Shown here one piece after another: positions 175 to 16,233 of a stretch of 51,090 bases of DNA. The notes under the pieces are model-generated. The model worked only from the letters and a program-made list of their open reading frames with translations, was not told the DNA's origin and ran no database searches. A program made the position numbers and the translations under genes. Within the stretch, counting starts at the first letter, position 1, and each line of letters begins with the position of its first letter. This DNA is from Thermoleophilaceae bacterium (GTDB lineage: Bacteria > Actinomycetota > Thermoleophilia > Solirubrobacterales > Thermoleophilaceae). The stretch lies in assembly GCA_050998555.1 (NCBI GenBank), contig JBPCQB010000110.1, forward strand, positions 1-51,090, given 5' to 3'.

Positions 175-960
175 GTGATCCCCCGGGTCTTCCACCGCAT
201 CTGGCTGGGCGAGGAGCCCATGCCGGAGGAGTTCGTGGCCTACGGCGAGACCTGGCGCCGGCACCACCCCGACTGGACGATGGAGCTGTGGACGGAGGAG
301 CGCCTGCCCGCCCTGCGCCATCCCGACGCCTTCGAGCGCGGCCGCAACCACTCGGAGCGCTCGAACGTCCTGCGCTACGAGCTCCTGTGGCAGCTCGGTG
401 GCGTCTACATCGATACCGACATGGAGTGCCTGCGCCCGATCGATCCGCTGCTCGACAGCGTGTGTGCGTTCGCCGGCAGCACGCGGCCGGGACGCATCGG
501 CTCGGCGATCGTCGGCTCGGTGCCGGGCCATCCCGCCTTCGAACGAGCCGTCGAGCTCGTGCCCCAGGGAGTCGCCGGAGGTGGGCGCCAGACCGAGGAG
601 ACGGGCCCCGGGTTCCTGACCGCGATCCTGGCGGACTTCCCCGACGTCACGGTGTTCCCCGCCGCGTACTTCTATCCCTATCGCCACGACGAGAAGCATC
701 TCCGCGGCCAGGAGTTCCCCGACGCCTACGCCGTCCACCACTGGACGAAGACGTGGGAGAGCTACGACGAGCTGCGGGCGCGCGTCGAGCGGCTGCAGCG
801 CAAGCTTGGACGGCGCGAGGCCCGGCTCGAGGAGGTCAAGCGGGCGCGCGACCGCGCCGTCTCGCGGCGGAAGGCGATCGAGGGGTCCCGGTGGTGGCGC
901 CTCGGCGGCGCTGCCGCGGCGGCGGCCCGGGCGGTACGGCGCCGCTCGGGCCGAGCGTGA
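175..960 (+). CDS. GT32-type glycosyltransferase (sugar-binding region with DXD motif) with C-terminal coiled-coil/basic tail, paralog 1 of 3
   Basis: GTG start. IPRVFHRIWLG N-terminus and RNHSERSNVLRYELLWQLGGVYIDTDMEC (DTD = DXD) are typical of the Och1/TcdA-like Gly_transf_sug region. R/E/L-rich heptad-like tail ends in SRWWRLGG. Clear paralogs at 9609..10421 and 11395..12216. Confidence 0.85.
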   Translation: MIPRVFHRIWLGEEPMPEEFVAYGETWRRHHPDWTMELWTEERLPALRHPDAFERGRNHSERSNVLRYELLWQLGGVYIDTDMECLRPIDPLLDSVCAFAGSTRPGRIGSAIVGSVPGHPAFERAVELVPQGVAGGGRQTEETGPGFLTAILADFPDVTVFPAAYFYPYRHDEKHLRGQEFPDAYAVHHWTKTWESYDELRARVERLQRKLGRREARLEEVKRARDRAVSRRKAIEGSRWWRLGGAAAAAARAVRRRSGRA

Positions 961-3207: not shown

Positions 3208-4284
3208 CTACGACCGGGCTCGCAGCCCTCGCGCCCGGGCACGGACATCGCGGACGAGGCCGGCGAGCGCGCCGCCGGTGGGCTTCTCGGCGCGCCGCTC
3301 GGCCTTGCGCGCGCGCTTCTCGAGCTGGGCGGCGGCCTTCCTGGTGCTCTCCCACTCGTCGATCGCCAGCATCATGTCGTCGAGAAGGTCGGCCAGCTCG
3401 ACGTCCCGTCGCGCCCCGGCGCGCGGGTCGCCCGGCGCTCCCGGCGGTGCGTCGCCGCGGGCGCGCTCGAAGAAGCCGCGCAGGCGTTCGTCCACCACGA
3501 AGCGGCCGTCGCTCACGCCCCTCTCGACGGCGTCGTCGTCCACGAGGCGCTCGTCGACGTAGTACTGGGCGACGCTGCGCACGCCGTCTCGATGGGCGCG
3601 GTAGCGGGCGACCTGGGAGGATCCCTCGAACCCGGCCCGCTCGAGGGCCGCGCCGTGGTGCACCTTCTTGCGCGCGAAGCTCTCGAGCGCACGGGCCTGG
3701 TAGTGGAAGATCACTATCGGGTGCCACCCCGGCACCGCCTCGAGACCCTCTCCCTGCAGGCGGTTGTTGCTGCGCTCGACCACCACCTCGGCGTTCGCGC
3801 GGTGTGCCCGCTTCGGGTGACCCTGCAGGCCGCGGGGATGGCGCGGCGAGCGGAAGTTGCGGACGAGCATCCGGTCGGCGAAGAAGTCCGTGGTCTCGGG
3901 CCGGGCCACGAAGCCCGAGCGGGGGGCGGCCAGCGCCCCCACCTGCGGGGGGATCGCCGCGAAGACGTCCTTGAGCGTCAGCGACGGGGCCCGCGGCCAC
4001 CAGAACTCGTCGGCGTCGTTGTTGATCACCCAGTCGGCTCCGAAGTCGGTGGCGGCCATCCGCGCCATCTGGGTCACCCAGTCGGACTGCCTGAGGTCAC
4101 CCGTCTGCTCGATCACGTGCAGTCGTCCCTCGCTGCGGTAGCGCTCGAGGATCTCGGGCGTCGAGTCCCGGGACTCGTTGTCCATGGCCACGACGAAGTC
4201 GACGCCCTGCCCGAAGTGGAAGTCGAGGTTCGCCTCGAGGATGTCCTCCTCGTCGCGGACGAGGAGCGTCATGACGAGCTTCAC
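3208..4284 (-). CDS. GT2 (Glyco_tranf_2_4-like) glycosyltransferase with coiled-coil tail, paralog 1 of 6
   Basis: GTG start. MKLVMTLLVRDEEDILEANLDFHFGQGVDFVVAMDNESRDST, then DWVINNDADEFWWP (DxD-type motif). C-terminal R/E/A-rich predicted coiled coil. Confidence 0.85.
   Translation of the reverse strand: MKLVMTLLVRDEEDILEANLDFHFGQGVDFVVAMDNESRDSTPEILERYRSEGRLHVIEQTGDLRQSDWVTQMARMAATDFGADWVINNDADEFWWPRAPSLTLKDVFAAIPPQVGALAAPRSGFVARPETTDFFADRMLVRNFRSPRHPRGLQGHPKRAHRANAEVVVERSNNRLQGEGLEAVPGWHPIVIFHYQARALESFARKKVHHGAALERAGFEGSSQVARYRAHRDGVRSVAQYYVDERLVDDDAVERGVSDGRFVVDERLRGFFERARGDAPPGAPGDPRAGARRDVELADLLDDMMLAIDEWESTRKAAAQLEKRARKAERRAEKPTGGALAGLVRDVRARARGLRARS
3988..4068. repeat. Near-identical 81-nt segment shared between GT2 paralogs (copy A)
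   Basis: 79/81 nt identical to 5146..5226. Encodes MARMAATDFGADWVINNDADEFWWPR on the - strand. Confidence 0.8.
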
Positions 4285-4332
4285 GGGGAGAGGATCAAGA
4301 GACGGCGTGGCGGCGCGACGACGCTCGCGATT

Positions 4333-5442
4333 CTAGTCCCGGCGCAGCGGCGACCGGAGCCGGCGCGACGCCCGGTTGAGCCACGATCCCCGCAGGGCCT
4401 CGAGCCGTCGCTCGGCCCGGTCGCGCCCACGCGCGGCCTTCTCGACCGCGGCCTGCGCCTTCGCGGCCGAGCGGTCGAGCTCCGCGCGCTCCTTGAGCGA
4501 GAGGGCCAGGTCGTCCAGCATGTCGGCCCGCTCGAAGCCGGCCCCGCCCGTGGAGGGGCCTGCGGTCTGCCCGGGCCCGGGGTGGCCACGCCGAGCCGCC
4601 ACCGCGGCGGCGCCGGGCACCGACTCCGGCACGCGGTCGAAGAAGGAGCGCAGCCGCTCGTCGACCACGAGGCGCCCGTCGTCGAGCCCGGCGGCCACCT
4701 CCGCCTCGTCCACGACGAAGGTCTCCGCGAAGGCCCGGGCGAGCGAGCGCTCGCCGGCGAGGTGCTGGCGGTAGCGCTCTACCTGGGTCGAGCCTCCCTC
4801 GAGCGTGCGCTCGAGGGCGGCCCCGTGGTGGAGCTTCTTGGCCTCGAAGCGGGCCGCGTCGCGCGCGGGGTAGTGGAAGATGATCACCGGGTGCCAGCCG
4901 GGGACGGGCACGAGTCCTTCCCCCTCGATCCGGTGGTTGCTCCGGCCCACGGTGACCTGCGCGAGCCCGCGGTGGGCGAGCTTCGGGTGGGCCGGCACCG
5001 CTCCACGGGCGGGTCGTACGTCGCGGTAGGTCATCCGGTCGACGAAGAACTCCGACTCGTCGGGCGGAGTCAGGAAGCGCGCCCGTGGAGCCGCCAGCGC
5101 CCCGACCTCGGGAGGGATCGCCTCGAACACCGTCCTCAAGGTGCCGGCCCGCGGCCACCAGAACTCGTCGGCGTCGTTGTTGATCACCCAGTCGGCGCCG
5201 AAGTCGGTGGCGGCCATCCTCGCCATGCGCGTGACCCACTCGGCCTGGCGTAGGTCTCCGTGCTGCTCGATGAGGTGGAGGTGCCCCTGGCGCTCGTGCC
5301 GGCGCAGGATCTCGAGGGTGCCGTCGGTCGAGGCGTTGTCGGTGGCGATGACGAAGTCGACGCCCTGGCCCAGGTGAAAGGCGAGGTTCGCGTCGAGGAC
5401 GTCCTCCTCGTCGCGGACCAGCAGGGTCATCACGAGCCTCAT
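4333..5442 (-). CDS. GT2 (Glyco_tranf_2_4-like) glycosyltransferase with coiled-coil tail, paralog 2 of 6
   Basis: ATG start. MRLVMTLLVRDEEDVLDANLAFHLGQGVDFVIATDNASTDGT, ADWVINNDADEFWWP. The tail ERAELDRSAAKAQAAVEKAARGRDRAERRLEALRGSWLNR looks like a coiled coil. Confidence 0.85.
   Translation of the reverse strand: MRLVMTLLVRDEEDVLDANLAFHLGQGVDFVIATDNASTDGTLEILRRHERQGHLHLIEQHGDLRQAEWVTRMARMAATDFGADWVINNDADEFWWPRAGTLRTVFEAIPPEVGALAAPRARFLTPPDESEFFVDRMTYRDVRPARGAVPAHPKLAHRGLAQVTVGRSNHRIEGEGLVPVPGWHPVIIFHYPARDAARFEAKKLHHGAALERTLEGGSTQVERYRQHLAGERSLARAFAETFVVDEAEVAAGLDDGRLVVDERLRSFFDRVPESVPGAAAVAARRGHPGPGQTAGPSTGGAGFERADMLDDLALSLKERAELDRSAAKAQAAVEKAARGRDRAERRLEALRGSWLNRASRRLRSPLRRD
5146..5232. 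repeat. Near-identical segment shared between GT2 paralogs (copy B)
   Basis: 79/81 identical to 3988..4068. 5153..5232 matches 6311..6390 with about 5 mismatches, including an identical 30-nt run ...gtcggtggcggccatcctcgccatgcgcgt. Confidence 0.8.
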
Positions 5443-5463
5443 CGGAGGTCGGATCGCCGACGC

Positions 5464-6603
5464 CTAGCGGGAGCGAAGGCGCCGGGCGAGGGCGGCCACC
5501 GCGACGGCGGCACCGCGCGTGCGGCCGTCGGCGCCCCCGGCGGCCTTCAGGCGCCGCTCCGCCTCCTGGCGGCGATCGCGCTCCTCGTCGCGGGCGCGCT
5601 CGGCACTCTCGATCCGCCGGCGGAGCTTTCGCTCCTCGCGGAAGAGCTGGCCCCCGTACTGAGCGATCGAGCCGAGCATCCTCGCCTCACGTTCGACGTC
5701 CTCGAGCGGCCGAGCGCTCTCGAGCGGCGCCTCGGGCTCGTCCCCCGGGGCGAGGTCCCAGAGGTCGCGACGAGCCGGGCGGCCGTGCTCCTCGAAGAAG
5801 CGCTTGAGCCTCATGTCGATCACCATGCTGCCGGCTCGCACGCCGGCCTCCACCTCGGCGTCCGCGGGCGCGAGCTCCTCGTATCGGCGTCGCAGCTCTC
5901 CGCGCTCGAGCTCGGCGTAGTCGGCGCCGTAGTTCTTCTCCTTGAGACCGCCCTCCCGCTTGGCCAGCGTCGTCTGCCTGGTCCGGCGCTCGAACTGCAG
6001 GTAGGAGCGCACCGGGAAGTGCAGGATCTGGATCGGGTACCACCCGCCGAGCAAGCCCAGCTCGGGGTGCTCGACCGCGTGGTTCCCACTGCCTACCGAG
6101 ATGTCCGCCCGGGCTCGGTGCGCGGTCTTCGGCAGGGGTGTTGGGACCCCGGTCCGGCGGTGCTTCGGCGAGTGGGTCCGACGCGCCACCATCCGGTCGG
6201 CGAAGAACCCGGCGTCCCCCGACCGGGGGAAGAAGTTCTGCTTCGGGGCCCGGATGATCCCGTACTCCCGGGGTATCTCTTCGAGCACCTCCTTCAGCGA
6301 GCCGCGGTCGGGCCACCAGAACTCGTCCGCGTCGTTGTTGATAACCCAATCCGCCCCGAAGTCGGTGGCGGCCATCCTCGCCATGCGCGTACGCCATGGG
6401 CCGTAGTCGGCATCGTGGGTCGGCTGGTCGATGAGATGGAGCACGTCCGCGCGCTCGTACTCGGCGAGCAGCTCCCTGGTCCCGTCGGCGGAGCCGTTGT
6501 CGGTGGCGATCACGAAGTCGACGCCGGACTCGAGGTGGTAGCGGAGGTTGGCCTCCACGACGTCCGCCTCGTCGCGAGCCAGCAGCGTCATGACGAGCTT
6601 CAT
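5464..6603 (-). CDS. GT2 (Glyco_tranf_2_4-like) glycosyltransferase with coiled-coil tail, paralog 3 of 6
   Basis: Internal ATG at 6603 of ORF 5464..7116 (MKLVMTLLARDEADVVEANLRYHLESGVDFVIATDNGSADGT). The ATGA overlaps the stop of the upstream gene. ADWVINNDADEFWWP motif and a charged heptad-like tail. Confidence 0.85.
   Translation of the reverse strand: MKLVMTLLARDEADVVEANLRYHLESGVDFVIATDNGSADGTRELLAEYERADVLHLIDQPTHDADYGPWRTRMARMAATDFGADWVINNDADEFWWPDRGSLKEVLEEIPREYGIIRAPKQNFFPRSGDAGFFADRMVARRTHSPKHRRTGVPTPLPKTAHRARADISVGSGNHAVEHPELGLLGGWYPIQILHFPVRSYLQFERRTRQTTLAKREGGLKEKNYGADYAELERGELRRRYEELAPADAEVEAGVRAGSMVIDMRLKRFFEEHGRPARRDLWDLAPGDEPEAPLESARPLEDVEREARMLGSIAQYGGQLFREERKLRRRIESAERARDEERDRRQEAERRLKAAGGADGRTRGAAVAVAALARRLRSR
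6311..6390. repeat. Near-identical segment shared between GT2 paralogs (copy C)
   Basis: See copy B. More diverged versions of the same block occur near 8349-8420, 18330-18385 and 23829-23900. Confidence 0.7.
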
Positions 6604-8639
6604 CGGGTCAACGTCCCGGGCGCGGCTCCACGAGTCGCGGCGCCGTTCTCGGACCCGCCGGCCGAGCCCTCGAAGACGACCCGATCGGGATCGAGCGTGG
6701 CGAGCCGGGCGAGGAGCCGGCGGGTGAGCGGCCGCGATGAGACCTCGGCCTGCGACGCCTCGTCCATCTCGGCCCGGAAGCCGCCGACCTCCGCCTTCCT
6801 GACCTTCAGCGCGTCGGGGTTGCCGTCCCAGTCGCCGTGGCCGAGTGGGGAGGGCTTGTGCGCTCCCCGTGGGTCGGCCTTCACCCCCGTCTCCGCGAGC
6901 TCTCGCCGGCGCATGGCGCCCACGTCGCTGGCCTCCATCGCGCGCCGGAAGGCCACGTCGTCGATCGGCTCGCCCAGCACGAACTCGAGGAAGCGCCGGA
7001 GCTCGGCCTCGGTCGAGCGCTTGAGCCCCTCGTAGGTGATGACCAGCGCCGAAGGGTGCGTCGAGGCGAGGTCGAGCAGGTCGTTCACGAACGCGGCCTG
7101 GCGCTCGATCCCCCACACCGGCGAGTCGATGAACTCGGGCAGCTCGCAGTCCACGAGGCGCTCGCGATCACGCGTCTGGTGGTACCAGGACACGGCAACG
7201 TCGCGGGGATCGCGCACGAGCACCACCACGCGCCGGCGACGGGCGACGGCCAGATGGCGCCGGAACGGCCGGCCCGGGTACTGCATGTGGCGCGCGTGCG
7301 AGAAGGCGAGCGAGGCGAGGCTGCGGTGCAGGCGCAGCTTGAAGGGCACCCCGCGCGTATCGGCCAGGTACTGGGAGAGGAAGTAGCGCAGCCAGGTGCG
7401 GCCGGACTTGGGGAACGAGAGCACCACTGTGTCGGCCTCGGCCATGCGCCGCCGCCGGCGCCAGTGCTCGACCGCCGGCACCCTGGGCTCGAGCCGGACG
7501 AGCAGCCGCCGTACCGCGTCGCGGCGACCGGCGCCGAGCGCTCGGCGCAGGCGCTTGCGGACCCGTCGGGCCCTCCGCCCGGCGATGGCGAGCACGGCCG
7601 TCAGCCCCGACGCAAACCGAGGCGCGAGGGCTCCCGAGGCCTCTCGCTCGGCGTTCTTCTCGGGCCGGCCGCGAGGCTCCCGCGGCTCCCGGGAGAGTCC
7701 CTGCTCGAGGCGCCTGCGCTGCCACTCTCCCGCGGAGATCGAGCCGGCCAGGGTCGCGCGGCGGGCCACCTCCTCCGCCTCTCGCTCCTGCGCCTCGGGC
7801 GCCTCGACCCCGCCGATCTCCCGCAGCCGCGGACTCGCGCCGAAGAAGCGCTGCAGCCGCCGGTCGATCACCAGCCGGCCCTCCTCGATTCCGCGTCCGA
7901 GCGCCGCCTCGTCGAGCAGCCCGTCCGCGTACTCCTCGGCGAGGCGGCCCTCCTCGAGGGCGCGGAACTCGGGCGTGGCGGCGGCGCGCCCGGAGGCCAT
8001 CCGACCCTCGTAGAGGTTGCGCAGCTTGCTCTCCCACTGCGCGAGCGAGCGCGCGGGGAAGTGCATGATCGAGATGGGGTACCAGCCGACGAGCGCCTCG
8101 AGCCCCGCGCCGGAGGCCGAGTGCGCGCCCTTGCCGATCACCACGTCGGCCCTCCCCCGGTGGGCCACCTTGGGGGGCAGCGCCTTGCTCCTCGTCTTCG
8201 CCTTCGACTGCAGGTCGCGGACCACCATACGGTCGACGAAGGAGGCACCCTCGCTCCCGTCGGAGAGGAAGTTCGAGCGCGGGACGCTGAGGATGCCGTA
8301 GGAAGCGGGGATCTCCTCCAGCACGTCCTTCAGCGTCCCGTGATCGGGCCACCAGAACTCGTCGGCGTCGCCGTTCAGGACCCAGTCGGCGCCGAATTCG
8401 GTGGCCGCGAGGCGCGCCATCCGGGTGACCCAGTCGGCCTGCGCGTAGTCGCGCCCCGGCTCGTGGATCAGGTGGAGGTGGCCCTCGCGGCGGTAGCGCT
8501 CGAGGACGTCGAGGGTCCCGTCCACCGAGCCGTTGTCGGTCGCGACCACGAGGTCGACGCCGCGCTCGAGGTGGTAGGCGATGTTCGCCTCGACGACGTC
8601 CTCCTCGTCCCGGGTGAGCAGGGTGAGCACGAGCTTCAT
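6600..8639 (-). CDS. Fusion protein: GT2 (Glyco_tranf_2_4-like, paralog 4 of 6), coiled-coil linker, PAPS-type sulfotransferase
   Basis: ATG at 8639 (MKLVLTLLTRDEEDVVEANIAYHLERGVDLVVATDNGSVDGT, ADWVLNGDADEFWWP). The same frame continues with no stop through a charged linker into VVLSFPKSGRTWLRYFL (5'-PSB loop) and LVRDPRDVAVSWYHQ (3'-PB motif). Stop at 6600. The sulfotransferase half is a paralog of 8636..9595. Confidence 0.8.
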   Translation of the reverse strand: MKLVLTLLTRDEEDVVEANIAYHLERGVDLVVATDNGSVDGTLDVLERYRREGHLHLIHEPGRDYAQADWVTRMARLAATEFGADWVLNGDADEFWWPDHGTLKDVLEEIPASYGILSVPRSNFLSDGSEGASFVDRMVVRDLQSKAKTRSKALPPKVAHRGRADVVIGKGAHSASGAGLEALVGWYPISIMHFPARSLAQWESKLRNLYEGRMASGRAAATPEFRALEEGRLAEEYADGLLDEAALGRGIEEGRLVIDRRLQRFFGASPRLREIGGVEAPEAQEREAEEVARRATLAGSISAGEWQRRRLEQGLSREPREPRGRPEKNAEREASGALAPRFASGLTAVLAIAGRRARRVRKRLRRALGAGRRDAVRRLLVRLEPRVPAVEHWRRRRRMAEADTVVLSFPKSGRTWLRYFLSQYLADTRGVPFKLRLHRSLASLAFSHARHMQYPGRPFRRHLAVARRRRVVVLVRDPRDVAVSWYHQTRDRERLVDCELPEFIDSPVWGIERQAAFVNDLLDLASTHPSALVITYEGLKRSTEAELRRFLEFVLGEPIDDVAFRRAMEASDVGAMRRRELAETGVKADPRGAHKPSPLGHGDWDGNPDALKVRKAEVGGFRAEMDEASQAEVSSRPLTRRLLARLATLDPDRVVFEGSAGGSENGAATRGAAPGTLTR

Positions 8640-9595
8640 GGCTCCTCCCCCGGCGACGATTGCGAGGCGAGCCCCGCGCCGGCACCAACGCCCACGAGCT
8701 CGTCGGCCCGCGCTCGGGACGCTGCGGCGTCGATCTCGGCGAGCCGCTCGAGCAGTCGGCGGGTCATCGGGCGCGAGGAGACATCCGCCTGGAGCGACTC
8801 GTCCATCTCGCTGCGGAAGCCGCCGACGGCCCCGCGCCGCACCTTGAGCCGCTCGGTCCGGCCGTCCCACTCCGCACGGCCGAGGCCCTTTCGCTGGGCG
8901 CCCTCGGAGGAGAGCTCCGTCTCCCACCGGCGCATGTTCGCGAAGTCGGATGCCTCCACCGCTCCCCGCAGATGGTGCTCGTCCACCGGCTCGTCCAAGG
9001 CGAAGCGCAGGAAGCGCCGCATCTCGCTCTCGGTCGAGCCGCGGAGGCGCTCGTAGCTCATCACGTGCACGTCGCCGGGGTGGCGATCGGCCACGTCGAG
9101 CAGGTCGAGCACGAAGGCGGACTGGCGCTCGATCCCGTAGAGCGGATGGTCGAGGAACTCCCGGAGCTCGAAGTCGACGTTGCCCGTCCGGTGGCGCGAG
9201 TGGTGGTAGTGGGAGACGGCGACGTCGCGCGGGTCCCGCACCATGACCACGAGGCGCTTGCCCATCAGCGCCTCCGGGAAGAGGGGCCCGCGCCGGGCGT
9301 TGTCCAGCAGGTGCTCGAACCCCACCGAGCCCGCGCTGCGGTTGAGGCCCGTGTCGACCGGGACCCCGGCCCTCAGGGAGAGGTAGTGGGCGAGGGCGTA
9401 GCGCATCCACGTCCTGCCCGACTTGGGGAAGGAGACGACCACGACGTCGGTCTTCTCGAGCCGCCGGCGCTTGCGCCGGCGGTCGAGGACGGGCACCCGG
9501 CGCTCGAGCGTGCGCTCGAGCCGGCGGGCGGCCGTCCCCAGAGGGCGAACTCGCTTGCGAGCGCGCCGGACGAGCTTGCGCATGCGCCGGGCCAC
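8636..9595 (-). CDS. PAPS-dependent sulfotransferase (Sulfotransfer_1-like)
   Basis: GTG start. VVVSFPKSGRTWMRYALAHYL (PSB loop) and MVRDPRDVAVSHYHH (3'-PB). Arg-rich N-terminal segment. The stop overlaps the ATG of the downstream GT2 fusion (ATGA). Confidence 0.85.
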   Translation of the reverse strand: MARRMRKLVRRARKRVRPLGTAARRLERTLERRVPVLDRRRKRRRLEKTDVVVVSFPKSGRTWMRYALAHYLSLRAGVPVDTGLNRSAGSVGFEHLLDNARRGPLFPEALMGKRLVVMVRDPRDVAVSHYHHSRHRTGNVDFELREFLDHPLYGIERQSAFVLDLLDVADRHPGDVHVMSYERLRGSTESEMRRFLRFALDEPVDEHHLRGAVEASDFANMRRWETELSSEGAQRKGLGRAEWDGRTERLKVRRGAVGGFRSEMDESLQADVSSRPMTRRLLERLAEIDAAASRARADELVGVGAGAGLASQSSPGEEP

Positions 9596-9608: not shown

Positions 9609-10421
9609 CTAGCGCTCGAGCGGTGCCAGCGCCCGCCCGCGGCGGCGACGGCGCCGGACGGACTCGGGCACGGCCCCCGCCACCCGGTGGCCGAGGCGGC
9701 GCCCCCACGTGCGCTCGATCGCCTCGAGCCTTGCCCTCAGCGCCGCGGCCTCGCGCTCAGCCTTCTCGGAGTGACGCTTGAACCTCTTGACGCGCTTCTG
9801 GAGCACCTCGACCTTGGCGCGGAGCTCCTCGCGGGACTCCCACGTCTTGGACCAGTGGTGGACGCCGTAGGCATCGGGGAACTCCTCGCCGGCGCGCCAC
9901 AGCTCGTTGAACGGGTAGGGGTAGAACAGCTCGTGGTCGAAGTAGGTCACGTCGGGATGGCCGGCCAGCATCTCGGCCAGGAACCCGGGGCCGTTCTCGT
10001 TCACCTGGAGCCCCGAGCCCGTGCGCTCGCGGACCCGGCGAACGCCCTCCTCGAAGGCGGGATGGTGGGCCTCGGCTCCGATGATCGCGCTGCCGAGGCG
10101 GCCCTCACGCTGGTAGCCCGCGAACACCGGGACCCCGTCGATCAGCGGCTCGATCGATCGCCTGCACTCCATGTCGGTGTCGATGTAGACCCCGCCCTGG
10201 GAGCGCAGCAGCTCGTAGCGCAGCACGTTCGAGCGCTCCGACTGGTTGCGCCCGCGTTCGAAGGCGGGCCGGCTCTCCCCGAGGTCCGGCAGATCCTCGT
10301 CGGTCCAGAGGCGCATCTCCCACCCCGGATGGTGGGCGCGCCACGTCTCCCCGTAGGCCACGAAGTCCTCGGGCATCGGCTCCGAGCCGAGCCATATGCG
10401 ATGGAAGATGCGAGGGATCAC
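9609..10421 (-). CDS. GT32-type glycosyltransferase (DXD) with coiled-coil tail, paralog 2 of 3
   Basis: MIPRIFHRIWLGSEPMPEDF, RNQSERSNVLRYELLRSQGGVYIDTDMEC. Tail is REELRAKVEVLQKRVKRFKRHSEKAEREAAALRARLEAIERTWGRR. The GTG start overlaps the stop of the upstream epimerase (GTGA). Confidence 0.85.
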   Translation of the reverse strand: MIPRIFHRIWLGSEPMPEDFVAYGETWRAHHPGWEMRLWTDEDLPDLGESRPAFERGRNQSERSNVLRYELLRSQGGVYIDTDMECRRSIEPLIDGVPVFAGYQREGRLGSAIIGAEAHHPAFEEGVRRVRERTGSGLQVNENGPGFLAEMLAGHPDVTYFDHELFYPYPFNELWRAGEEFPDAYGVHHWSKTWESREELRAKVEVLQKRVKRFKRHSEKAEREAAALRARLEAIERTWGRRLGHRVAGAVPESVRRRRRRGRALAPLER

Positions 10422-11392
10422 AGCGGTGCCTCAGCGTGCTCCGCGGTGCGCGTGGTCATCCACAGAAGCTGGGCCGCGAGGCCCTCCTGGAGCGACGTCT
10501 CCGCGGTCCAGCCGAGCTCCCGGGCCGCGAGCGAGGAGTCGGCGTGGGTGTGGCGCGCATCGCCCATCGTCGCGTCCTCGCGCTCCACCCTCACCTCGCG
10601 GTCGAGCAGCGTGCCCAGCATGGCGATGACCGCGTTCAGCTCCACCGGCTCCCCCCCGCCGATGTTGTACACGGCCCCGGGCCGACCGCGGGCGGCCGCG
10701 AACGTCGCGGCCACGACGTCGTCCACGTAGGTGAAGTCGCGCACCTGGCGCCCGTCGCCGAAGACGTGAAGCGGCTCCCCGGCGAGGGCTCGAGAGAGGA
10801 AGCGAAGGAAGGCCATGTCCGGGCGCTGGCGGGGTCCGTAGGCCGTGAAGTAGCGGAGCCCGACCACCGGGACCCCGTGGTTGCGGTGGTAGACGTTCGC
10901 GATCTCCTCGGTGGCCAGCTTGGTCATGCCGTACGGGGACACGGGCTGCCGCGGCGTGTCCTCGGTGGTCGGCGCGGTGAGCGCGTTGCCGTACACCGAC
11001 GAGGACGACGCGTAGACGAACGAAGAGACGGGCCGGGCCACCGCCTCCTCGAGCAGGCGCTGGGTGGCGAGGACGTTCCAGCGGACGTAGCGCTCGAAGC
11101 CCTTCCCGAACGAGCTCCGCACGCCGGCCTGGGCGGCCAGGTGGAAGACGTCGTCGACCCCGTCGAGCAGGCCGTCGAGCGAGTCGGCGCTCAGGTCGAG
11201 CTCGTGCAGGGAGAAGCCCGGGTGCTCGCGCGCGCGGGTGAGGTTCTCCTCCTTGAGCTCGCGCGGGTAGTAGTCGGTGAAGCAGTCGACCCCGACCACC
11301 TCGCGTCCCTCCGCGAGCAGCCGCTCGACGAGCCACGAGCCGATGAAGCCGGCGCAGCCGGTGACAAGCGCGCGGTCGGCGGAGCGCGCCAC
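10418..11392 (-). CDS. NAD-dependent nucleotide-sugar epimerase/dehydratase (extended SDR, GalE / UDP-glucuronate 4-epimerase-like)
   Basis: GTG at 11392, 2 nt after the upstream stop. ALVTGCAGFIGSWLVERL Rossmann motif and SPYGMTK catalytic YxxxK. The rest of ORF 10418..12118 upstream of this is overlap with the GT32 gene. Confidence 0.9.
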   Translation of the reverse strand: MARSADRALVTGCAGFIGSWLVERLLAEGREVVGVDCFTDYYPRELKEENLTRAREHPGFSLHELDLSADSLDGLLDGVDDVFHLAAQAGVRSSFGKGFERYVRWNVLATQRLLEEAVARPVSSFVYASSSSVYGNALTAPTTEDTPRQPVSPYGMTKLATEEIANVYHRNHGVPVVGLRYFTAYGPRQRPDMAFLRFLSRALAGEPLHVFGDGRQVRDFTYVDDVVAATFAAARGRPGAVYNIGGGEPVELNAVIAMLGTLLDREVRVEREDATMGDARHTHADSSLAARELGWTAETSLQEGLAAQLLWMTTRTAEHAEAPL

Positions 11393-11394
11393 GG

Positions 11395-12216
11395 CTACGT
11401 CCTCGTCCGCGGCGCGACGCCGGGGCGCCGGCGCACCGCACCGCTCACCCGAGCGAGCGCCGCCCGCACCCGGGTGACGGGCCGTCGGGTCCGTCGGGCG
11501 TCGCCGGCTTCGAGCGCGGCCAGCCGGGCCCGTGCGTCGGCCTGGCCCCGGCGGGCCTCGTCGCGCTGGGCCCTCATCCTCGCCACCTTCGCCTCGAGTC
11601 GCTCGACGCGCCGCGCGAGGTCGTCGGCGCCCTCCTCCCACGTCCTCGCCCAGTGGTGGACCGCGTAGGCCTCCGGGAACTCCTCGCCGCGGCGATGACG
11701 CTCCTTGTAGGTATAGGGGTAGAAGGTCTCCGAGCCGAAGATCGTCACGTCGGGGAACTCGGCCAGCACCTCGGTGAGGAAGCCGGGGCCGGTGGCGTTG
11801 GTCTGCTTGCCGACGCCCACCCGCTCGCCCACCAGCTCGACGGCGCGAGCCATCGCCGGGTGCCCGGGGACCGATCCGATCACGGCGCTCCCCACCCGGC
11901 CGGGGACGGTCGTGGCGGCGAACGCATCGTGCCCGTCGACGAGATCGTCGATCGGGCGCAGGCACTCCACGTCGGTGTCCACGTAGAGGCCGCCCTGGGC
12001 GTCGAGCAGCTCGTAGCGGATCACGTTCGAGCGCTCGGACTGGTTGCGCGAGCGCTCGAGCACCGCGCCGTTCACGAGCTCGGGCAGCCGCTCGTCGGTC
12101 CACAGCTCCATCCGCCACTCCGGGTGGTGGCGCCGCCAGGTCTCCCCGTATTCGACGAACTCCTCGGGCATGGGGTCCGAGCCCAGCCAGATGCGATGTA
12201 TCACGCGCGGGATCAA
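11395..12216 (-). CDS. GT32-type glycosyltransferase (DXD) with coiled-coil tail, paralog 3 of 3
   Basis: Probable TTG start at 12216 (LIPRVIHRIWLGSDPMPEEF). RNQSERSNVIRYELLDAQGGLYVDTDVEC. Tail is DDLARRVERLEAKVARMRAQRDEARRGQADARARLAALE. Confidence 0.8.
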   Translation of the reverse strand: MIPRVIHRIWLGSDPMPEEFVEYGETWRRHHPEWRMELWTDERLPELVNGAVLERSRNQSERSNVIRYELLDAQGGLYVDTDVECLRPIDDLVDGHDAFAATTVPGRVGSAVIGSVPGHPAMARAVELVGERVGVGKQTNATGPGFLTEVLAEFPDVTIFGSETFYPYTYKERHRRGEEFPEAYAVHHWARTWEEGADDLARRVERLEAKVARMRAQRDEARRGQADARARLAALEAGDARRTRRPVTRVRAALARVSGAVRRRPGVAPRTRT

Positions 12217-12236: not shown

Positions 12237-13043
12237 CTAGGCGAAGATCGGAGCGGTGTGGTCCATGGAGGTGAGGGGCCCTTCGGTGAGCCGCATCCCG
12301 AAGAACGGGAGCAGACGCTGCCCGGAGTAGATCGACAGGCTGCCCACCCCGCCGCTCGGCTCGAGCAGCCGGCGCACGCGGGGCACCTCGGCCGACAGGA
12401 CCCCGTGCCATGCCGACCACGGCGCCACGTCGAACGGGGCGCCCTCGGCCGAGAGCCCGTCGGGGCTCGTGACCACGAGCCGGGCCGAGGTGCCCGACCG
12501 GGTGGGGTTCAGCAGGACCACCTCGCTCTCGAGCTCGCGCGAGGCGACGATCCCCGGGACCACCTGGAGGTCATCGCGGGCCAGCAGCTTGGCCGCGCCC
12601 TGGATCGGGACCGTCGGCGCCAGGTACCCCCCGCCCCGCCGACCGTGGGCGTCGACCCACATGCCGAGGAACTTGGTGCCCTTGGGCGGCGCGGCGTCGA
12701 GGCGGATGGCGTGGACCTCGAGCACGCCGCCGTGCTCGGGGGGGTCCGGTAGCTCGAGGTCGTCGAGGCGCACCGCGCGCTGCTCCCCGAACCGCACGCG
12801 ACCCGCCTCGCGCTCCCACTCCGGCGTCGGCGACCCCGCGTATCCGCGCAGGACGAAGCGGAACTCGGCCTCCGGGTCCACCGTGGCGTGGTACGGGGTG
12901 AGCACCACCGTGACCGAGTAGTCCTCAGGACGGGGCCACCACGCGTAGCAGGGCAGCCAGCCCGAGGGCTCCTCGCGGCGGTCGGCCTCTACAGGTGCTG
13001 TGCTCGCCACAGGTCGGCGCTCGGGTCGTAGCGGATCATCCAT
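12237..13043 (-). CDS. Hypothetical protein, distant paralog of the C-terminal domain of the upstream BFD-domain protein
   Basis: The only ATG in frame downstream of the ORF head is at 13043 (MDDPLRPE), overlapping the upstream gene by 55 nt. High GC3. Block order (beta-rich VTVVLTPY, VVLLNPT, ends ..SMDHTAPIFA) resembles residues ~120-352 of 12989..14047. No family recognised. Start uncertain. Confidence 0.5.
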   Translation of the reverse strand: MDDPLRPERRPVASTAPVEADRREEPSGWLPCYAWWPRPEDYSVTVVLTPYHATVDPEAEFRFVLRGYAGSPTPEWEREAGRVRFGEQRAVRLDDLELPDPPEHGGVLEVHAIRLDAAPPKGTKFLGMWVDAHGRRGGGYLAPTVPIQGAAKLLARDDLQVVPGIVASRELESEVVLLNPTRSGTSARLVVTSPDGLSAEGAPFDVAPWSAWHGVLSAEVPRVRRLLEPSGGVGSLSIYSGQRLLPFFGMRLTEGPLTSMDHTAPIFA

Positions 13044-14047
13044 CCGGCCACCTTGTGCGTGGACGGGCTCAGCCTCACGGTGCCCGCGCTGAGGCCGGTG
13101 CCGATGGCGGGAAAGTGCTCGTGCAGGGGCACGCACGCGCTCTGGTCGAGCTCGAGGGGAGGGAGCGGCGCCCGCTCCTCGCTACCGGCGTCGTCCTGCC
13201 AGACGAGCTCGTGGTGGTCGAGGGGCACGGGCTGGGTGTTCGTGAGGAACATGTAGGCCTCCTCCGGCCGCGGGGAGAATCCCACCGGGAACACCCAGTA
13301 GTAGTTGCGCTTCAGCTCGGTGGCCGCGCCCTCCCGGGTCGGGGCGCTCTTCTCGTGCGTCGAGGTGATGCCGGTGGGGGTGATGAAGTGGAAGTACGGG
13401 CGGAACGAGGCCAGCTGCTCCGCCTCGATCACGAGCTTCACCACGCCGACGCCCTCCCACGGGACATCGGGGGGGAGGGCGTCGCGCACGTCGAGCACCG
13501 CCGAGTGCCGGGGCTCGACGCGCACCTGGGTGACGCCGAGCCGCGCGCCGGAGAGATCGAGCAGATCCGCGCGGAGGGACACGGACTTCTGACGCACCGC
13601 ACGCGAGTCCACCTCGTCGTAGGAGTTGAAGAGGATCAGCCGCGTGGTCACGTCGCGTCCGCGGTAGCCCGAGAGCACGGGCATGTACATGCGGCGAGGC
13701 AGCAGGCCGTCCTCTCCGCCCCGTCCCCGCCCGGACCGCAGGGTGCGTCGCAGCCGCTCCCATCGGGAGGGCTGGTAGGCGGGAAGGGTGACCACCGACG
13801 AGCGCACGTAGGCCTCGCCCAGGCGCTGCTCGAGCAGTCCCTCGATCTCCGACCGGCAGCCGAAGCACCGCGTGCAGGCGGTGGTCAGGCGCTGCACGTC
13901 GGCCAGGGAGTGGGCGCCGTCGCGGTCGACGGCCTCCTCCACGCGGGAGTACGGGACTCGGCGGCAGTGGCACAGCGTGCCGGCGGGATCGGCGACGAGC
14001 ACCGAAGGGCCGGCGGGGGCTGGTTCTCCGGTGGCGGGACTAGACAT
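12989..14047 (-). CDS. BFD-like [2Fe-2S]-binding domain protein with C-terminal domain of unknown function
   Basis: ATG start. CHCRRVPYSRVEEAVDRDGAHSLADVQRLTTACTRCFGCRSEIEGLL fits the CxC...CxxC bacterioferritin-associated-ferredoxin pattern. The remaining ~230 aa have no motif I recognise. Confidence 0.65.
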   Translation of the reverse strand: MSSPATGEPAPAGPSVLVADPAGTLCHCRRVPYSRVEEAVDRDGAHSLADVQRLTTACTRCFGCRSEIEGLLEQRLGEAYVRSSVVTLPAYQPSRWERLRRTLRSGRGRGGEDGLLPRRMYMPVLSGYRGRDVTTRLILFNSYDEVDSRAVRQKSVSLRADLLDLSGARLGVTQVRVEPRHSAVLDVRDALPPDVPWEGVGVVKLVIEAEQLASFRPYFHFITPTGITSTHEKSAPTREGAATELKRNYYWVFPVGFSPRPEEAYMFLTNTQPVPLDHHELVWQDDAGSEERAPLPPLELDQSACVPLHEHFPAIGTGLSAGTVRLSPSTHKVAGWMIRYDPSADLWRAQHL

Positions 14048-14104
14048 GCTCGATGGGTACCTGGGTCACCCGCGGGGAGGGTAGAAGCCGAGGCGCACTC
14101 GGGA

Positions 14105-15487
14105 TCAGGCTCCGTCGGGATCGAAGATGTCTCTCGCCGTCACGGCGAGAACTTCGTCGGCGTGCTCGACTTCGTCGCGCGCGGCGACCGCGAAGCGCGG
14201 CGCCGACTCGAGTCGCGGCAGTGCCTCAGCCCTGTGCTCGAGGGTGCGCCGGATCGCCGAGGCGTCGGCGGTCCTCGCCCACTTCGCCTCGCCGATCAGC
14301 CGTGCGGCACGACCGCGACCCGCGAGCGCGACGCAGTCGATCTCCACGGGCGGCTGGTCGCTCCAGAACGATCCGACGGCCACCACGCCCTCGCCGAGCT
14401 CGCCGGCACCCGCGATGCGTCGTACGTGATCTCGGAAGGCCGATTCCCAGCGCGCGCCCATGTGATCGTCCAGGCTCTGTTCGAGCACGGGCAGGACGCT
14501 CGATCCGAGGCCTCGCTCGATCTCCGCGCGGTAGGGCTCGAGCACACCGAGCCAGAACGCGAGGAAGTTGTCTGCGATCCGGTACAGGCGTCGGCGGGTG
14601 CTCCGCGGGCTCGCAGTCACCGGGACCATGCGCTCTACGAGGCGGAGCTCGATCAGGCGGTCGAGGGTGCGGGCGGGCTCGGCGCGCACCGCCTGCTCGA
14701 TCTCGTTGTGCTTGGTGCGGCCGGCGGCGATCGCTCGGAGCACCGGTCCGCCGAGGCTGCCGCTCTCGCCCTCGGTGGCCAGCACGAGCTGCCCCTCGTT
14801 CAGGAGCTGGCCGCCAGGGGTGGCCACCAGGCGCGCGAGGTTGTCGCGGACGCTACCGGTCTCGTCCCACCACTCGAGGTAGAGCGGCACTCCACCCACC
14901 AGCCCCCACACCAGCGCGCGTTCCCTGGGCTCGAGCCCCCTGAGCATGGCCGCCGCCTCGTGCGGGCGAAATGGGTGGAGGAGAAGCGACAGGTCGATCC
15001 GCCCGTACAGCGGCGCTCGCTCCTCCTGGATCCCCTCCATCGTCCGCACGGCGGAGCCGCAGAGGAGGATGCGGAGCTGCGTACGCCCCCGCGCCCGGTC
15101 CCAGAAGGCGCGTAGCAGACTCGGGAGCTCTGGACTGGCCCGGAGGAGCTCGGGGAACTCGTCGAGGACGAGGAGAAGCGGCCCATCCGTCGCGGCGGTG
15201 GCAAGGGCGTCGAGGGCGTCTCCCCAATCGACGAACGGTCGCGCGGCCAGGTCGCGCAGGCCGCCGCCGGCTACAGCGTCGCCCGCGGCGCGTGACAGCG
15301 CTCTGAGCTCGTCCTCGAGCGGCCGTCCGGCCCCGGTGTGGAAGACCGTCCGGTATCCGTGCGCGAAGACCTCGAGCAGAACGGTCTTGCCCACGCGGCG
15401 CCGACCCCAGAGCAGCCCGAGCCGCGCGCCCGGCTGGTCCCACCAGCGCTCGAGCGCGGCGAGCTCTTGCGTGCGGTTGACGAACAC
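14105..15487 (-). CDS. AAA-type ATPase (archaeal-ATPase / ATPase_2 family) with DUF234-like C-terminal domain
   Basis: GTG start. FVNRTQELAALERWW, Walker A GRRRVGKT, Walker B LLLVLDEFPEL. C-terminal part has VEIDCVAL...LIGEAKW, typical of the restriction-endonuclease-like DUF234 end. Confidence 0.85.
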   Translation of the reverse strand: MFVNRTQELAALERWWDQPGARLGLLWGRRRVGKTVLLEVFAHGYRTVFHTGAGRPLEDELRALSRAAGDAVAGGGLRDLAARPFVDWGDALDALATAATDGPLLLVLDEFPELLRASPELPSLLRAFWDRARGRTQLRILLCGSAVRTMEGIQEERAPLYGRIDLSLLLHPFRPHEAAAMLRGLEPRERALVWGLVGGVPLYLEWWDETGSVRDNLARLVATPGGQLLNEGQLVLATEGESGSLGGPVLRAIAAGRTKHNEIEQAVRAEPARTLDRLIELRLVERMVPVTASPRSTRRRLYRIADNFLAFWLGVLEPYRAEIERGLGSSVLPVLEQSLDDHMGARWESAFRDHVRRIAGAGELGEGVVAVGSFWSDQPPVEIDCVALAGRGRAARLIGEAKWARTADASAIRRTLEHRAEALPRLESAPRFAVAARDEVEHADEVLAVTARDIFDPDGA

Positions 15488-15547
15488 GAGCGTAATAGGT
15501 TACCGACACCAGCCGTCGGTGACACTCGACGTCGGCGACGTTAGCGG

Positions 15548-15970
15548 TCAGCATCGATACTCCGACCGTCCCGCGCACGGCGCCACCACTCGCACGCTGC
15601 CGGAGGCCACGGTCGCGAGCCCGGCGTCGAGGGTCACGAGGCTTGCCCCGAGCGCCTCGGCGAGCGCGAGGTAGGCCGCGTCGTAGGGGCTCAGCGCGTG
15701 TCGCAACGCCCAGACACGTGGCAGCAGTGGATGGTGGGGCCACCGCCTGACGGCCAGGTCGTCCAGGTCCTCGAACGCGAGCTCCACCCGCTCTGGGGAC
15801 ACCTCCGCGCGCCGCACGAGCTTGCGCACCGCGCTGACCACCTCGAGGTCGAGCAGCTCGGGTGCGTGGAGGGGACGGTCCGCCTCGAGCAGCGCACGGC
15901 GAACCTCTCCGGCGCGCGGCTCCTCTCCCGCGAGGAGCGCGACGATCGCCGAAGCATCGACGACGATCAG
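15548..15970 (-). CDS. vapC: VapC PIN-domain toxin
   Basis: Reading from 15970 gives LIVVDASAIVALLAGEEPRAGEVRRALLEADRPLHAPELLDLEVVSAVRKL...SPYDAAYLALAEALGASLVTLD, which contains the PIN acidic residues. The only start-like codon overlapping the antitoxin stop is CTG (CTGA), so the exact start is uncertain. Confidence 0.75.
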   Translation of the reverse strand: MIVVDASAIVALLAGEEPRAGEVRRALLEADRPLHAPELLDLEVVSAVRKLVRRAEVSPERVELAFEDLDDLAVRRWPHHPLLPRVWALRHALSPYDAAYLALAEALGASLVTLDAGLATVASGSVRVVAPCAGRSEYRC

Positions 15971-16203
15971 CGGTCGCGGTCCTCGCGCACCAGCGCCTCC
16001 GGCGCCTCCGGCGCCTCCGGCAACCGCATGGGATCGCGGCCAGCCATGCGGGTGAGAACCTCCTCCATGGAGGGGGTGGCCACGTCCGCCTCGGCCAGCC
16101 GGAGCATGTACTGCGAAAGCGACGTCCCGTCGCGGAGCGCGCGCAGGCGGAGCTCCCGATGCACCGGCTCGGGCACGTTCCGAACTTGGATCATCTTCGA
16201 CAT
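15967..16203 (-). CDS. vapB: VapB-type antitoxin (ribbon-helix-helix, FitA/Arc-like)
   Basis: ATG at 16203. MSKMIQVRNVPEPVHRELRLRALRDGTSLSQYMLRLA is a typical RHH antitoxin N-terminus. Sits directly upstream of and overlapping vapC. Contains a 9-bp x3 coding repeat (PEAPEAPEA). Confidence 0.7.
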   Translation of the reverse strand: MSKMIQVRNVPEPVHRELRLRALRDGTSLSQYMLRLAEADVATPSMEEVLTRMAGRDPMRLPEAPEAPEALVREDRDR

Positions 16204-16233
16204 GTGACGCACACTAACGCATGTGCCGCACAC
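16201..16233. promoter_or_regulatory. Candidate VapB operator: two 14-nt direct repeats in the divergent vapB / methyltransferase control region
   Basis: catgtgacgcacac (16201-16214) and catgtgccgcacac (16220-16233) match 13/14 with 19-bp register. The first covers the vapB start codon, the second the ATG at 16221. Confidence 0.3.

Follow-up and report, generated by a model that had tools for sequence, protein, structure and literature searches.

Animals, algae and cyanobacteria are well-established producers of sulfated glycans, whereas documentation from other bacteria is poor. Described enzymes that couple two steps of glycan synthesis or modification in one polypeptide differ in their partner domains. 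In the Golgi-lumenal membrane protein NDST, a C-terminal PAPS-dependent sulfotransferase (ST) is joined to the enzyme that acts one step earlier, a deacetylase rather than an active glycosyltransferase (GT). Geobacillus WsaE and chlorovirus A064R reportedly join a GT to a methyltransferase, and two related chain terminators, E. coli O9a WbdD and Klebsiella O12 WbbB, cap the termini (with methyl/phosphate or Kdo) in ABC-transporter-dependent O-antigen synthesis, WbdD consisting of a kinase and a methyltransferase with a coiled coil and no GT domain. The fusion protein described here resembles NDST in carrying a C-terminal PAPS-type ST joined to what would be the enzyme of the preceding step, and WsaE, A064R and WbbB in that a single cytoplasmic polypeptide would both transfer the sugar and decorate or cap the product. 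It differs from WsaE, A064R, WbdD and WbbB in that the predicted modification is sulfation and in that its linker fails a crude coiled-coil check. Bacterial sulfated polysaccharides were still called exclusive to cyanobacteria in a 2026 paper (PMC13390465), and carbohydrate sulfotransferases are poorly annotated (PMC11625862). Our literature searches found no described or characterised bacterial GT-ST fusion; a brown-alga 'fusion' paper was rejected as a precedent because it concerns different gene pairs.

The fusion gene lies in a 51,090-nucleotide stretch of DNA from a Thermoleophilaceae bacterium (hereafter, the window), where positions 6600-8639 of the minus strand form a single ORF of 679 aa, free of stops throughout. 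Only two database hits carry names; at 43-62% identity, they point to the class Thermoleophilia. From the N- to the C-terminus, it encodes a GT-A glycosyltransferase, a charged linker, an Arg-rich segment and a PAPS-type sulfotransferase, with approximately 355 aa contributed by the GT part and 325 aa by the ST part. The GC content at third codon positions remains between 0.83 and 1.0 in this frame across the entire ORF, including the linker. Thus, the initial annotation, which placed the GT, the linker and a second ST paralogue in one frame, was correct, and its coordinates for the fusion and for the free ST gene next to it (8636-9595, minus strand) are exact. The start of the fusion overlaps the stop of the free ST in an ATGA at 8636-8639, and at the other end, the fusion stop shares 4 nt (6600-6603) with the start of the GT gene that follows. 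An internal methionine, Met399 (7445), had been proposed for checking as an additional start, but was rejected given that it is not preceded by a Shine-Dalgarno sequence and that initiation there would remove the Arg-rich leader, the most constrained segment of the protein. No NCBIfam model matched any of the three proteins scanned (the fusion, the free ST and the GT paralogue at 5464-6603), and an exact-sequence look-up found no protein identical to the fusion in the public collection.

The N-terminal half matches the Glyco_tranf_2_4 profile (PF13704) over aa 10-105 with 54.9 bits, well above the gathering cut-off of 27.5, whereas the GT92 profile is marginal (23.2 versus 23) and Glycos_transf_2 falls slightly under its threshold (22 versus 23.3). 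The catalytic core (aa 1-270; 7830-8639, minus strand) is predicted to adopt a GT-A fold (AF2 pLDDT >90) and contains an intact DxD motif (D91-A-D93, 8361-8369) within the sequence DADEFWWP, which is invariant across the three aligned window paralogues, namely, the fusion and the two nearest downstream GTs; in the orthologue P0003, the motif reads DVD. The best Foldseek match of the modelled domain is the GT92 beta-1,4-galactan synthase GalS1 of poplar (PDB 8d3t; E 4.5e-8), followed by the GT2 enzyme SpsA of B. subtilis, SunS, WrtF and TarS. Although GalS1 and SpsA share the DxD-containing GT-A fold, their similarity to the fusion GT is so distant (identity of only 13-17%, target-normalised TM-scores of 0.41-0.47) that it provides no basis for inferring the donor or the acceptor. 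The N-terminal domain is GT2_4/GT92-like, and its DxD motif makes a metal-dependent enzyme with a nucleotide-sugar donor probable.

The sulfotransferase core occupies aa 401-650 (6690-7439, minus strand) and matches Sulfotransfer_1 (PF00685) over aa 402-584 with 51 bits against a gathering cut-off of 22; the free ST reaches 72 bits with the same profile. The 5'-PSB loop (P410-KSGRTW-416), His448 and the 3'-PB segment (R476-DPRDVAVS-484) are all present, and in sets of 46 and 24 family members, the columns of PKSGRTW, His448 and RDPRDVAVS show either no variation or a conservation of at least 90%. In the full-length AF2 model, the ST half was poor and domain packing uninformative, so that this half was modelled separately, yielding a mean pLDDT of 83.9 with a core above 90. 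All of the top 50 Foldseek matches to this model have the SULT fold (cytosolic SULTs, plant SOT16 and retinol dehydratase). The best sequence and fold matches from phmmer and Foldseek, cytosolic SULTs as well as the glycopeptide sulfotransferases Teg12 and Teg14, share the Sulfotransfer_1 family and the PAPS-binding loops with the fusion but lack its 50-aa Arg-rich leader and act on small molecules or peptides, whereas the genomic and fusion context of the present ST points to a glycan acceptor.

The two halves are joined via the charged tail of the GT and the helical, Arg-rich N-terminal leader of the ST. The former (aa 271-352; 7584-7829, minus strand) is the most variable part of the protein, with dN/dS of 0.47-0.57, and the indels that distinguish the orthologues preserve the frame. 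The initial annotation described this linker as a coiled coil, which is not demonstrable: aa 283-340 contain prolines at positions 319, 322, 326 and 340 as well as several glycines, a crude home-made heptad score is only 1-2.5 here, whereas the free GTs of the window reach 5.6-7.7 in their C-terminal tails, and AlphaFold predicts short helices with pLDDT of 50-75. By contrast, the proposed match between the linker and the Arg-rich leader of the free ST proved to reflect homology. Residues 357-649 of the fusion align with residues 2-288 of the free ST at 51% identity (E 1e-75), and the leader alone yields a Smith-Waterman score of 84, compared to 41 ± 6.4 for composition-preserving shuffles, none of which reached 84 in 2000 trials, so that the match cannot be attributed to mere Arg-richness. 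The position of the free ST's start codon is occupied in the fusion by an Arg codon (AGG), and no in-frame ATG, GTG or TTG was found near it. The leader (aa 353-400; 7440-7583, minus strand) is 40% Arg, is predicted to form, together with flanking residues, three helices (aa 342-367, 370-383 and 388-401) and shows the tightest constraint of all segments (dN/dS 0.10-0.25, dS not depressed). It probably serves in targeting or docking to an anionic membrane surface, an anionic polymer or partner enzymes. The C-terminal tail (aa 651-679; 6600-6689, minus strand, including the stop) is unconstrained: of the three divergent pairs, two show dN/dS of approximately 1, and pLDDT is below 50. Two further proposals were discarded: the hydrophobic patch GLTAVLAIAG (aa 345-354) is not kept in P0002 or P0003 and thus was rejected as a membrane anchor, and the ST leader is no more similar to the Arg-rich free-GT tails, or to the leader of a second ST fusion in the window (PIG-L-ST, see below), than composition predicts.

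The fused gene is present in three independent metagenomic contigs (L001-L003), one from a JGI metagenome and two from Logan assemblies of public sequencing runs (the source samples include JGI 3300012188, SRR13378646 and SRR22405819), which encode full-length orthologues (P0001-P0003) with 75-96% aa identity. The gene order in these contigs, DXD-GT, free ST, fusion and GT, is the same as in the window. With dS of up to about 0.5 among the four sequences, both domains and the leader evolve with dN/dS within 0.1-0.35 (0.2-0.35 for the GT domain and about 0.19 for the ST). Four independent sequences, in-frame indels and purifying selection on both halves confirm that the fusion is genuine and not an assembly artefact, a recent accident or a sequencing error.

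The setting of the fusion is a cell-envelope glycan gene cluster. Upstream of it, on the same strand, lies the free ST of 319 aa with its own Arg-rich leader, which starts with GTG preceded 7 nt upstream by AGGAAGG and has orthologues in the same position in L001, L002 and L003; directly upstream of the free ST is a DXD (Gly_transf_sug) glycosyltransferase (9609-10421, minus strand), a position kept in L001. Downstream, also on the minus strand, follow free GT paralogues of 379 aa (5464-6603, bearing a charged helix as well as a C-terminal tail rich in Arg), 369 aa (4333-5442) and 358 aa (3208-4284); overall, the free GTs span 358-390 aa. The initial annotation regarded the neighbours as the unfused version of the same pair. 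They are instead old paralogues, with 51% identity for the ST and 45-47% for the GTs. Two more ST genes in the window (24307-26238 and 35741-36808) bring the number of ST domains to at least four. The former is itself a natural deacetylase-sulfotransferase fusion (PIG-L and ST) and is the window's closer analogue of NDST. The cluster also encodes a TagA/WecG protein, nucleotide-sugar enzymes and sialic-acid genes (NeuB, NeuC, a CMP-transferase and a CMAH-like Rieske/MBL protein). A charged helix together with an Arg-rich tail or leader is found on nearly every enzyme of the cluster. Among the ORFs scanned with Pfam in the 51-kb window, neither a PAPS-synthesis gene nor an exporter was found.

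To the origin of the fusion, several observations are relevant. Each half of the fusion has full-length free homologues, the free ST being colinear with the fusion ST from residue 2 and the free GTs measuring 358-390 aa, and free forms are the rule in the GT and ST families alike. Furthermore, the fused clade branches from within the free GTs, and the nearest relative of the fusion ST (ST2) is the adjoining ST1. The prevalence of free forms and the nested position of the fused clade make fusion of neighbouring, translationally coupled genes a sensible origin: an ST-GT unit would have been duplicated within the tandem array of translationally coupled genes, after which a GT would have been joined in frame to the ST located downstream. 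The initial annotation attributed the fusion to loss of an intergenic stop between neighbouring genes; the stop loss itself cannot be reconstructed, and with ATGA-type overlaps, it would not suffice unless a frameshifting indel occurred. No split orthologue was found among 5.8 billion clusters, 1.84 billion representatives and the GTDB species genomes; in a scan of the latter with the ST alignment, the best matches were only 31-37% identical, with no close relative and no split orthologue. The comparison of orthologous loci proposed at the outset revealed no split genes, the fusion being intact in all three loci found. The nearest free GTs (P0011 and P0012), which occur in other contexts, were rejected as split orthologues given that they are only about 55% identical and that their neighbours are kinase-like genes or a distinct GT-ST3 fusion instead of this ST. 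With no split orthologue found, the fusion event is old, and its exact mechanism is beyond reconstruction.

Although the combination of GT2_4 with a leader-bearing Sulfotransfer_1 is known from four sequences only, which form one cluster at 50% identity, its description as unusual was overstated, since GT-ST fusions recur in sequence databases. The ST family of the fusion is joined to three other glycosyltransferase types in public data. TOD1_MUCI70-Sulfotransfer_1 fusions form eight clusters (for instance, P0121, P0123, P0213, P0221 and P0223), and P0121-type proteins include the closest outside relatives of the fusion ST (42-44% identity); P0315 combines GT4/GT1 with Sulfotransfer_1. Conversely, the GT family of the fusion is joined to other sulfotransferases and to methyltransferases (P0115). 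P0056, with a PAPS synthase gene nearby, is a Glyco_tranf_2_4-Sulfotransfer_3 fusion, whereas P0088 has the same two domains in reversed order. As a further case in point, a 918-aa protein of locus L087 is a fusion of homologues of two window genes, 34008-35681 and 35741-36808. All these GT-ST proteins differ from the window fusion in GT family, ST subfamily or domain order, and their GTs belong to separate clades, so that they represent independent fusion events. Such recurrence supports a functional link between the two activities.

Taken together with the conserved motifs and the cluster context, this makes it probable that the protein is a long-established bifunctional GT-ST enzyme, which would act in the cytoplasm, extending a lipid-linked wall glycan by a sugar and sulfating the product. 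The GT-A domain would pass a sugar to the growing, probably lipid-linked glycan, and the SULT-fold domain would use PAPS to sulfate the product, at either the new sugar or a neighbouring one, with both steps on the cytoplasmic side, ahead of export. Here, we infer the two activities, their shared substrate, the reaction order and the cytoplasmic, lipid-linked chemistry alike. The initial proposal that both activities act on the same growing glycan thus holds as a reasonable inference of functional coupling. The full-length AF2 model (pTM 0.54) provides no confident inter-domain geometry and hence leaves channelling between the active sites without structural support. In addition, at a related locus, the free GTs nearest to the fusion have kinase-like genes rather than STs as partners, indicating that the GT family is not tied to sulfation as such.

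Alternatively, the fusion might serve only to co-localise two enzymes of the same pathway that act on different residues or at different steps, setting a 1:1 stoichiometry and placing the ST where assembly takes place, with no hand-over of product. This reading accommodates the length of the linker (about 130 aa), its variability and its partial disorder, as well as the varied orders and combinations in which STs and GTs of these kinds are fused, and the charged helices and Arg-rich tails or leaders of nearly all cluster enzymes suggest common recruitment instead of pairwise coupling. Nevertheless, we consider it unlikely, given that repeated independent GT-ST fusions are a classic signature of consecutive steps; the difference from the bifunctional enzyme is one of degree only, and the two are inseparable by sequence.

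By analogy with WbdD and WbbB, the GT could also add a terminal residue and the ST a sulfate cap that stops polymerisation and/or marks the chain for export. The soluble GTs of the cluster bear C-terminal charged helices of coiled-coil character (by the crude score), the TagA/WecG-type linkage-unit enzyme is typical of wholly cytoplasm-built polymers, and the kinase-like genes beside GT-family members at the related locus would represent another anionic cap. However, the fusion linker itself is not coiled-coil-like, four ST domains per cluster are better suited to sulfation along the chain than to a lone cap, and the Pfam-scanned ORFs of the window, beyond which the cluster may extend, included neither an ABC transporter (Wzm/Wzt or TagGH-like) nor a cap-binding module. 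A role in chain termination therefore appears highly improbable. Finally, the possibility that the ORF is an assembly artefact, a sequencing error or the product of recent read-through with one half non-functional is effectively refuted: high-GC genomes do yield long spurious ORFs and the exact protein is absent from the public collection, but the fusion recurs in four independent sequences with in-frame linker indels, the catalytic motifs are intact in halves that are both under purifying selection, and the coding GC3 signal continues across the junction.

The GT-ST fusion is real and conserved and belongs to a recurrent type, and accordingly is a useful clue rather than a surprise; the surrounding cluster is of more interest than the fusion alone. 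In a broader, distinctly doubtful scenario, the fusion would be a station in the cytoplasmic assembly line of an actinobacterium for a heavily sulfated, glycosaminoglycan-like, sialylated wall polymer, with the charged-helix and Arg-rich modules tethering the enzymes. Glycosyl transfer would alternate with O-sulfation by the GT-ST fusion, the PIG-L-ST protein (24307-26238) would perform N-deacetylation and N-sulfation, and NeuB, NeuC, the CMP-transferase and the CMAH-like Rieske/MBL protein would provide for the addition and hydroxylation of sialic acid. If true, this assembly line would be a bacterial counterpart of the animal Golgi glycosaminoglycan machinery. The difficulty in assigning specificities to carbohydrate sulfotransferases lies in pairing each with its cognate glycosyltransferase, and a conserved GT-ST fusion offers such a pair ready-made; soluble bacterial GT-ST enzymes could, moreover, serve in the enzymatic synthesis of sulfated oligosaccharides. 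For this uncultured, high-GC lineage, the fusion draws attention to the cluster, which may encode the synthesis of a multiply sulfated wall polymer.

On the minus strand, a 319-aa free sulfotransferase (ST1; 8636-9595; Pfam Sulfotransfer_1, 72 bits) is followed, through an ATGA overlap, by an ORF of 679 aa (6600-8639), the stop codon of which is overlapped by 4 nt by the start of the next gene. The longer ORF carries an N-terminal Glyco_tranf_2_4 domain (GT2_4; aa 10-105, 54.9 bits versus a Pfam cut-off of 27.5) and a C-terminal Sulfotransfer_1 domain (ST2; aa 402-584, 51 bits versus a cut-off of 22), confirming the ORF pair and the single-frame glycosyltransferase-sulfotransferase (GT-ST) fusion reported in the initial annotation. 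At the GC content of the window (72%), shadow ORFs are abundant; GC3 of the fusion frame is 0.83-1.0 across all 679 codons, including the inter-domain part. The GT half retains a DADEFWWP motif (D91, D93), invariant in three aligned paralogues from the window, and is modelled as a GT-A fold (pLDDT >90). The closest structural neighbours of this model in the PDB are poplar GalS1 (GT92), SpsA, SunS/ThuS, WrtF and TarS; at the sequence level, the only PDB match is a weak one to GmaR. The ST half, modelled separately (pLDDT 83.9), structurally matches cytosolic SULTs, with additional sequence matches to Teg12 and Teg14, and keeps all family-invariant residues (PKSGRTW 410-416, His448 and RDPRD..S 476-484). 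Both domains are soluble, with neither a signal peptide nor a conserved transmembrane segment.

A word-indexed protein search recovered three full-length fused orthologues, P0001 (96%), P0002 (86%) and P0003 (75%), from separate assemblies: a JGI metagenome and two public sequencing runs assembled in Logan. In all three, the gene order is DXD-glycosyltransferase, free sulfotransferase, fusion and next GT, and in the codon alignment every linker indel (1-3 codons) is in frame. For the three more divergent pairs, Nei-Gojobori dN/dS is 0.2-0.35 in the GT core, 0.47-0.57 in the linker (aa 271-352), 0.10-0.25 in the Arg-rich leader (aa 353-400), where dS is not depressed, and about 0.19 in the ST core; for the last 29 residues it is 0.74-1.03 in two pairs and 0.18 in the third. 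The same fusion and gene order in three assemblies, the in-frame indels and the dN/dS values exclude an artefact or a recent read-through. Judging from the substitution patterns, selection maintains the protein sequence of both halves and of the leader. Between the window gene and its orthologue on contig L001 (2353-4401), dS is 0.13 in the GT core and 0.43 in the ST core, a mosaic divergence suggesting recombination within the gene.

The proposed match between the fusion linker and the Arg-rich leader of the free sulfotransferase holds: residues 2-288 of the latter align with aa 357-649 of the fusion at 51% identity (E 1e-75). Given that both leaders contain 35-40% Arg, the leader was tested by itself, yielding a local alignment score of 84 versus 41 +/- 6.4 in shuffles, with 0/2000 shuffles reaching 84. 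The leaders of P0002 and P0003 align with that of ST1 without gaps across the first 17 residues. In the model of the ST half, the leader is predicted to form three helices (aa 342-367, 370-383 and 388-401). By contrast, the term 'coiled-coil' is not demonstrable for the fusion, because linker aa 283-340 contain prolines (319, 322, 326 and 340) and several glycines and reach a heptad score of only 1-2.5; it fits the C-terminal tails of the free GT2_4 and DXD GTs of the window, which score 5.6-7.7 on the same crude home-made scale. Every free GT in the cluster ends in a charged helix and an Arg-rich tail, the helix being heptad-compatible by this score in the GTs at 175-960 (+), 3208-6603 (-), 9609-12216 (-), 18075-19205 (+) and 22973-24145 (-). 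This arrangement is common to two unrelated families, GT2_4 and DXD/Gly_transf_sug, and looks like a cluster-wide oligomerisation or targeting module. Arg-rich leaders begin ST1 and a PIG-L-sulfotransferase protein; outside the ST1/ST2 pair, such leaders and tails are similar in composition only.

As to its origin, the fusion had been attributed to loss of an intergenic stop between neighbouring genes. ST1 starts at a GTG preceded by AGGAAGG; this start aligns with an AGG Arg codon in the fusion, where no in-frame start codon is left. A GT of ~355 aa and an ST of ~325 aa cover the full 679 aa, which means that both partners were kept whole. A neighbour-joining tree built from the GT cores groups the four fusions into a single clade, which lies within the free GTs, and places other GT-ST fusions elsewhere. 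When 1.84 billion representatives were searched exhaustively with the ST half, one fusion cluster and one free-ST cluster (54%) came first, and the identities of the next hits dropped to 42-43%, indicating that ST1 and ST2 are local duplicates. The ST1-[GT-ST2]-GT order fits a scenario in which an ST-GT unit was duplicated and neighbours were then joined in frame. Joining of neighbours agrees with the data; no still-split orthologue was found in protein searches (1.84 billion representatives), GTDB, the contigs that carry the closest free GTs or the GT tree, so the joining event, be it loss of a stop or an indel, is inferred. The GT/ST array is dynamic: the gene downstream of the fusion is an orthologue of the window GT at 4333-5442 in contig L001 and of that at 5464-6603 in L002.

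The coupling of the two domains is less unusual than first claimed, since GT-ST fusions recur in both families. Among the 150 best ST-family representatives, 24 are longer than 420 aa, including eight TOD1_MUCI70 GT-ST, one GT4/GT1-ST, one Wzx-like-ST and about five methyltransferase-ST proteins; GT2_4-ST occurs there only in the cluster of the window fusion. Elsewhere, independent fusions join GT2_4 to a C-terminal (P0056) or N-terminal (P0088) Sulfotransfer_3 domain, to a Stf0-like domain (P0096), PIG-L (P0055), methyltransferases (P0115) and itself (P0004, P0005, P0025). A 918-aa protein of contig L087 (143-2899) combines homologues of two genes that are separate in the window, one for a putative BFO_1060-like GT of 557 aa (34008-35681, -; 57% identity) and one for a Sulfotransfer_3 enzyme (35741-36808, -; 56%); this second GT-ST pair is fused in the L087 lineage and split, with the opposite gene order, in the window. 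On contig L086 (1062-6643), a protein-kinase-like gene comes after each of the closest free GT relatives, in one case with a 4-nt overlap, which suggests GT-phosphorylation pairs parallel to the GT-sulfation ones. Partnering of GTs with enzymes that attach anionic groups looks like a theme. A literature search found no bacterial enzyme described as a GT-ST fusion. The fusion is real, conserved and uncharacterised, and belongs to a class of GT-plus-modifier proteins that is recurrent yet unstudied.

PAPS and nucleotide sugars are found in the cytoplasm, and TagA/WecG, encoded here at 43736-44554, is a marker of polymers built on undecaprenyl phosphate inside the cell. Based on these features and the soluble domains, the GT domain is proposed to glycosylate a lipid-linked intermediate and the ST domain to sulfate the glycosylated product before export, while the Arg-rich leader would target or dock the enzyme. 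A sulfate cap that ends the chain is made less likely by a linker without clear coiled-coil character, by the four ST domains and by the fact that no transporter was seen in the window. Co-localisation of the two presumed activities without product hand-over is not separable by sequence from sulfation of the GT product.

The surrounding glycan cluster spans at least 45 kb (own gene calls and Pfam) and includes six GT2_4 paralogues, three DXD GTs, further GT2, GT4 and BFO_1060-like GTs, nucleotide-sugar enzymes and three methyltransferases. A GT4/GT1-type GT with a EGFGLPPLEAMACG motif was delineated from the codon-position GC profile at ~37050-38155 (+). Neither a PAPS synthase nor an exporter was seen in the window by gene calls and Pfam; a PAPS synthase lies near the P0056 fusion. 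Non-glycan genes break the cluster at 12237-16212 (a BFD-like [2Fe-2S] protein, 12989-14002; ATPase_2/DUF234, 14105-15487; two small ORFs, 15548-16212) and at 49084-49662, an ORF starting MAALGYARVSTLEQ that is serine recombinase-like by eye. The GT matches include a Solirubrobacteraceae hit, which, taken with a Thermoleophilaceae match of the PIG-L-sulfotransferase protein, suggests that the DNA comes from a Thermoleophilia-like organism; no close relative was found among GTDB species genomes.

Sialic-acid-type genes for NeuB (28462-29502, +), a NeuC-type 2-epimerase (29564-30745, +) and a CMP-sugar cytidylyltransferase (17251-18069, +) accompany a protein with Rieske [2Fe-2S] and metallo-beta-lactamase folds (21004-22833, -). 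The same two domains are paired in animal CMP-Neu5Ac hydroxylase, and their occurrence in one cluster with these genes hints that a sialic-acid-like sugar is modified. The PIG-L-sulfotransferase protein (24307-26238, +; 643 aa) consists of an Arg-rich leader, a PIG-L/LmbE deacetylase domain (aa 93-211) and an ST domain (aa 325-599), which makes it a naturally occurring bacterial analogue, in architecture, of animal N-deacetylase/N-sulfotransferase (NDST). This architecture is found in at least 50 protein clusters (44-98% identity), with carriers including Thermoleophilaceae (62%), Vicinamibacterales, Acidobacteria and Thiohalobacter sp. IOR34; a literature search found no described link between LmbE-type deacetylases and bacterial N-sulfotransferases. 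With its combination of a deacetylase-sulfotransferase fusion, sialic-acid genes and multiple sulfation genes, the cluster as a whole is a more promising lead than the fusion.
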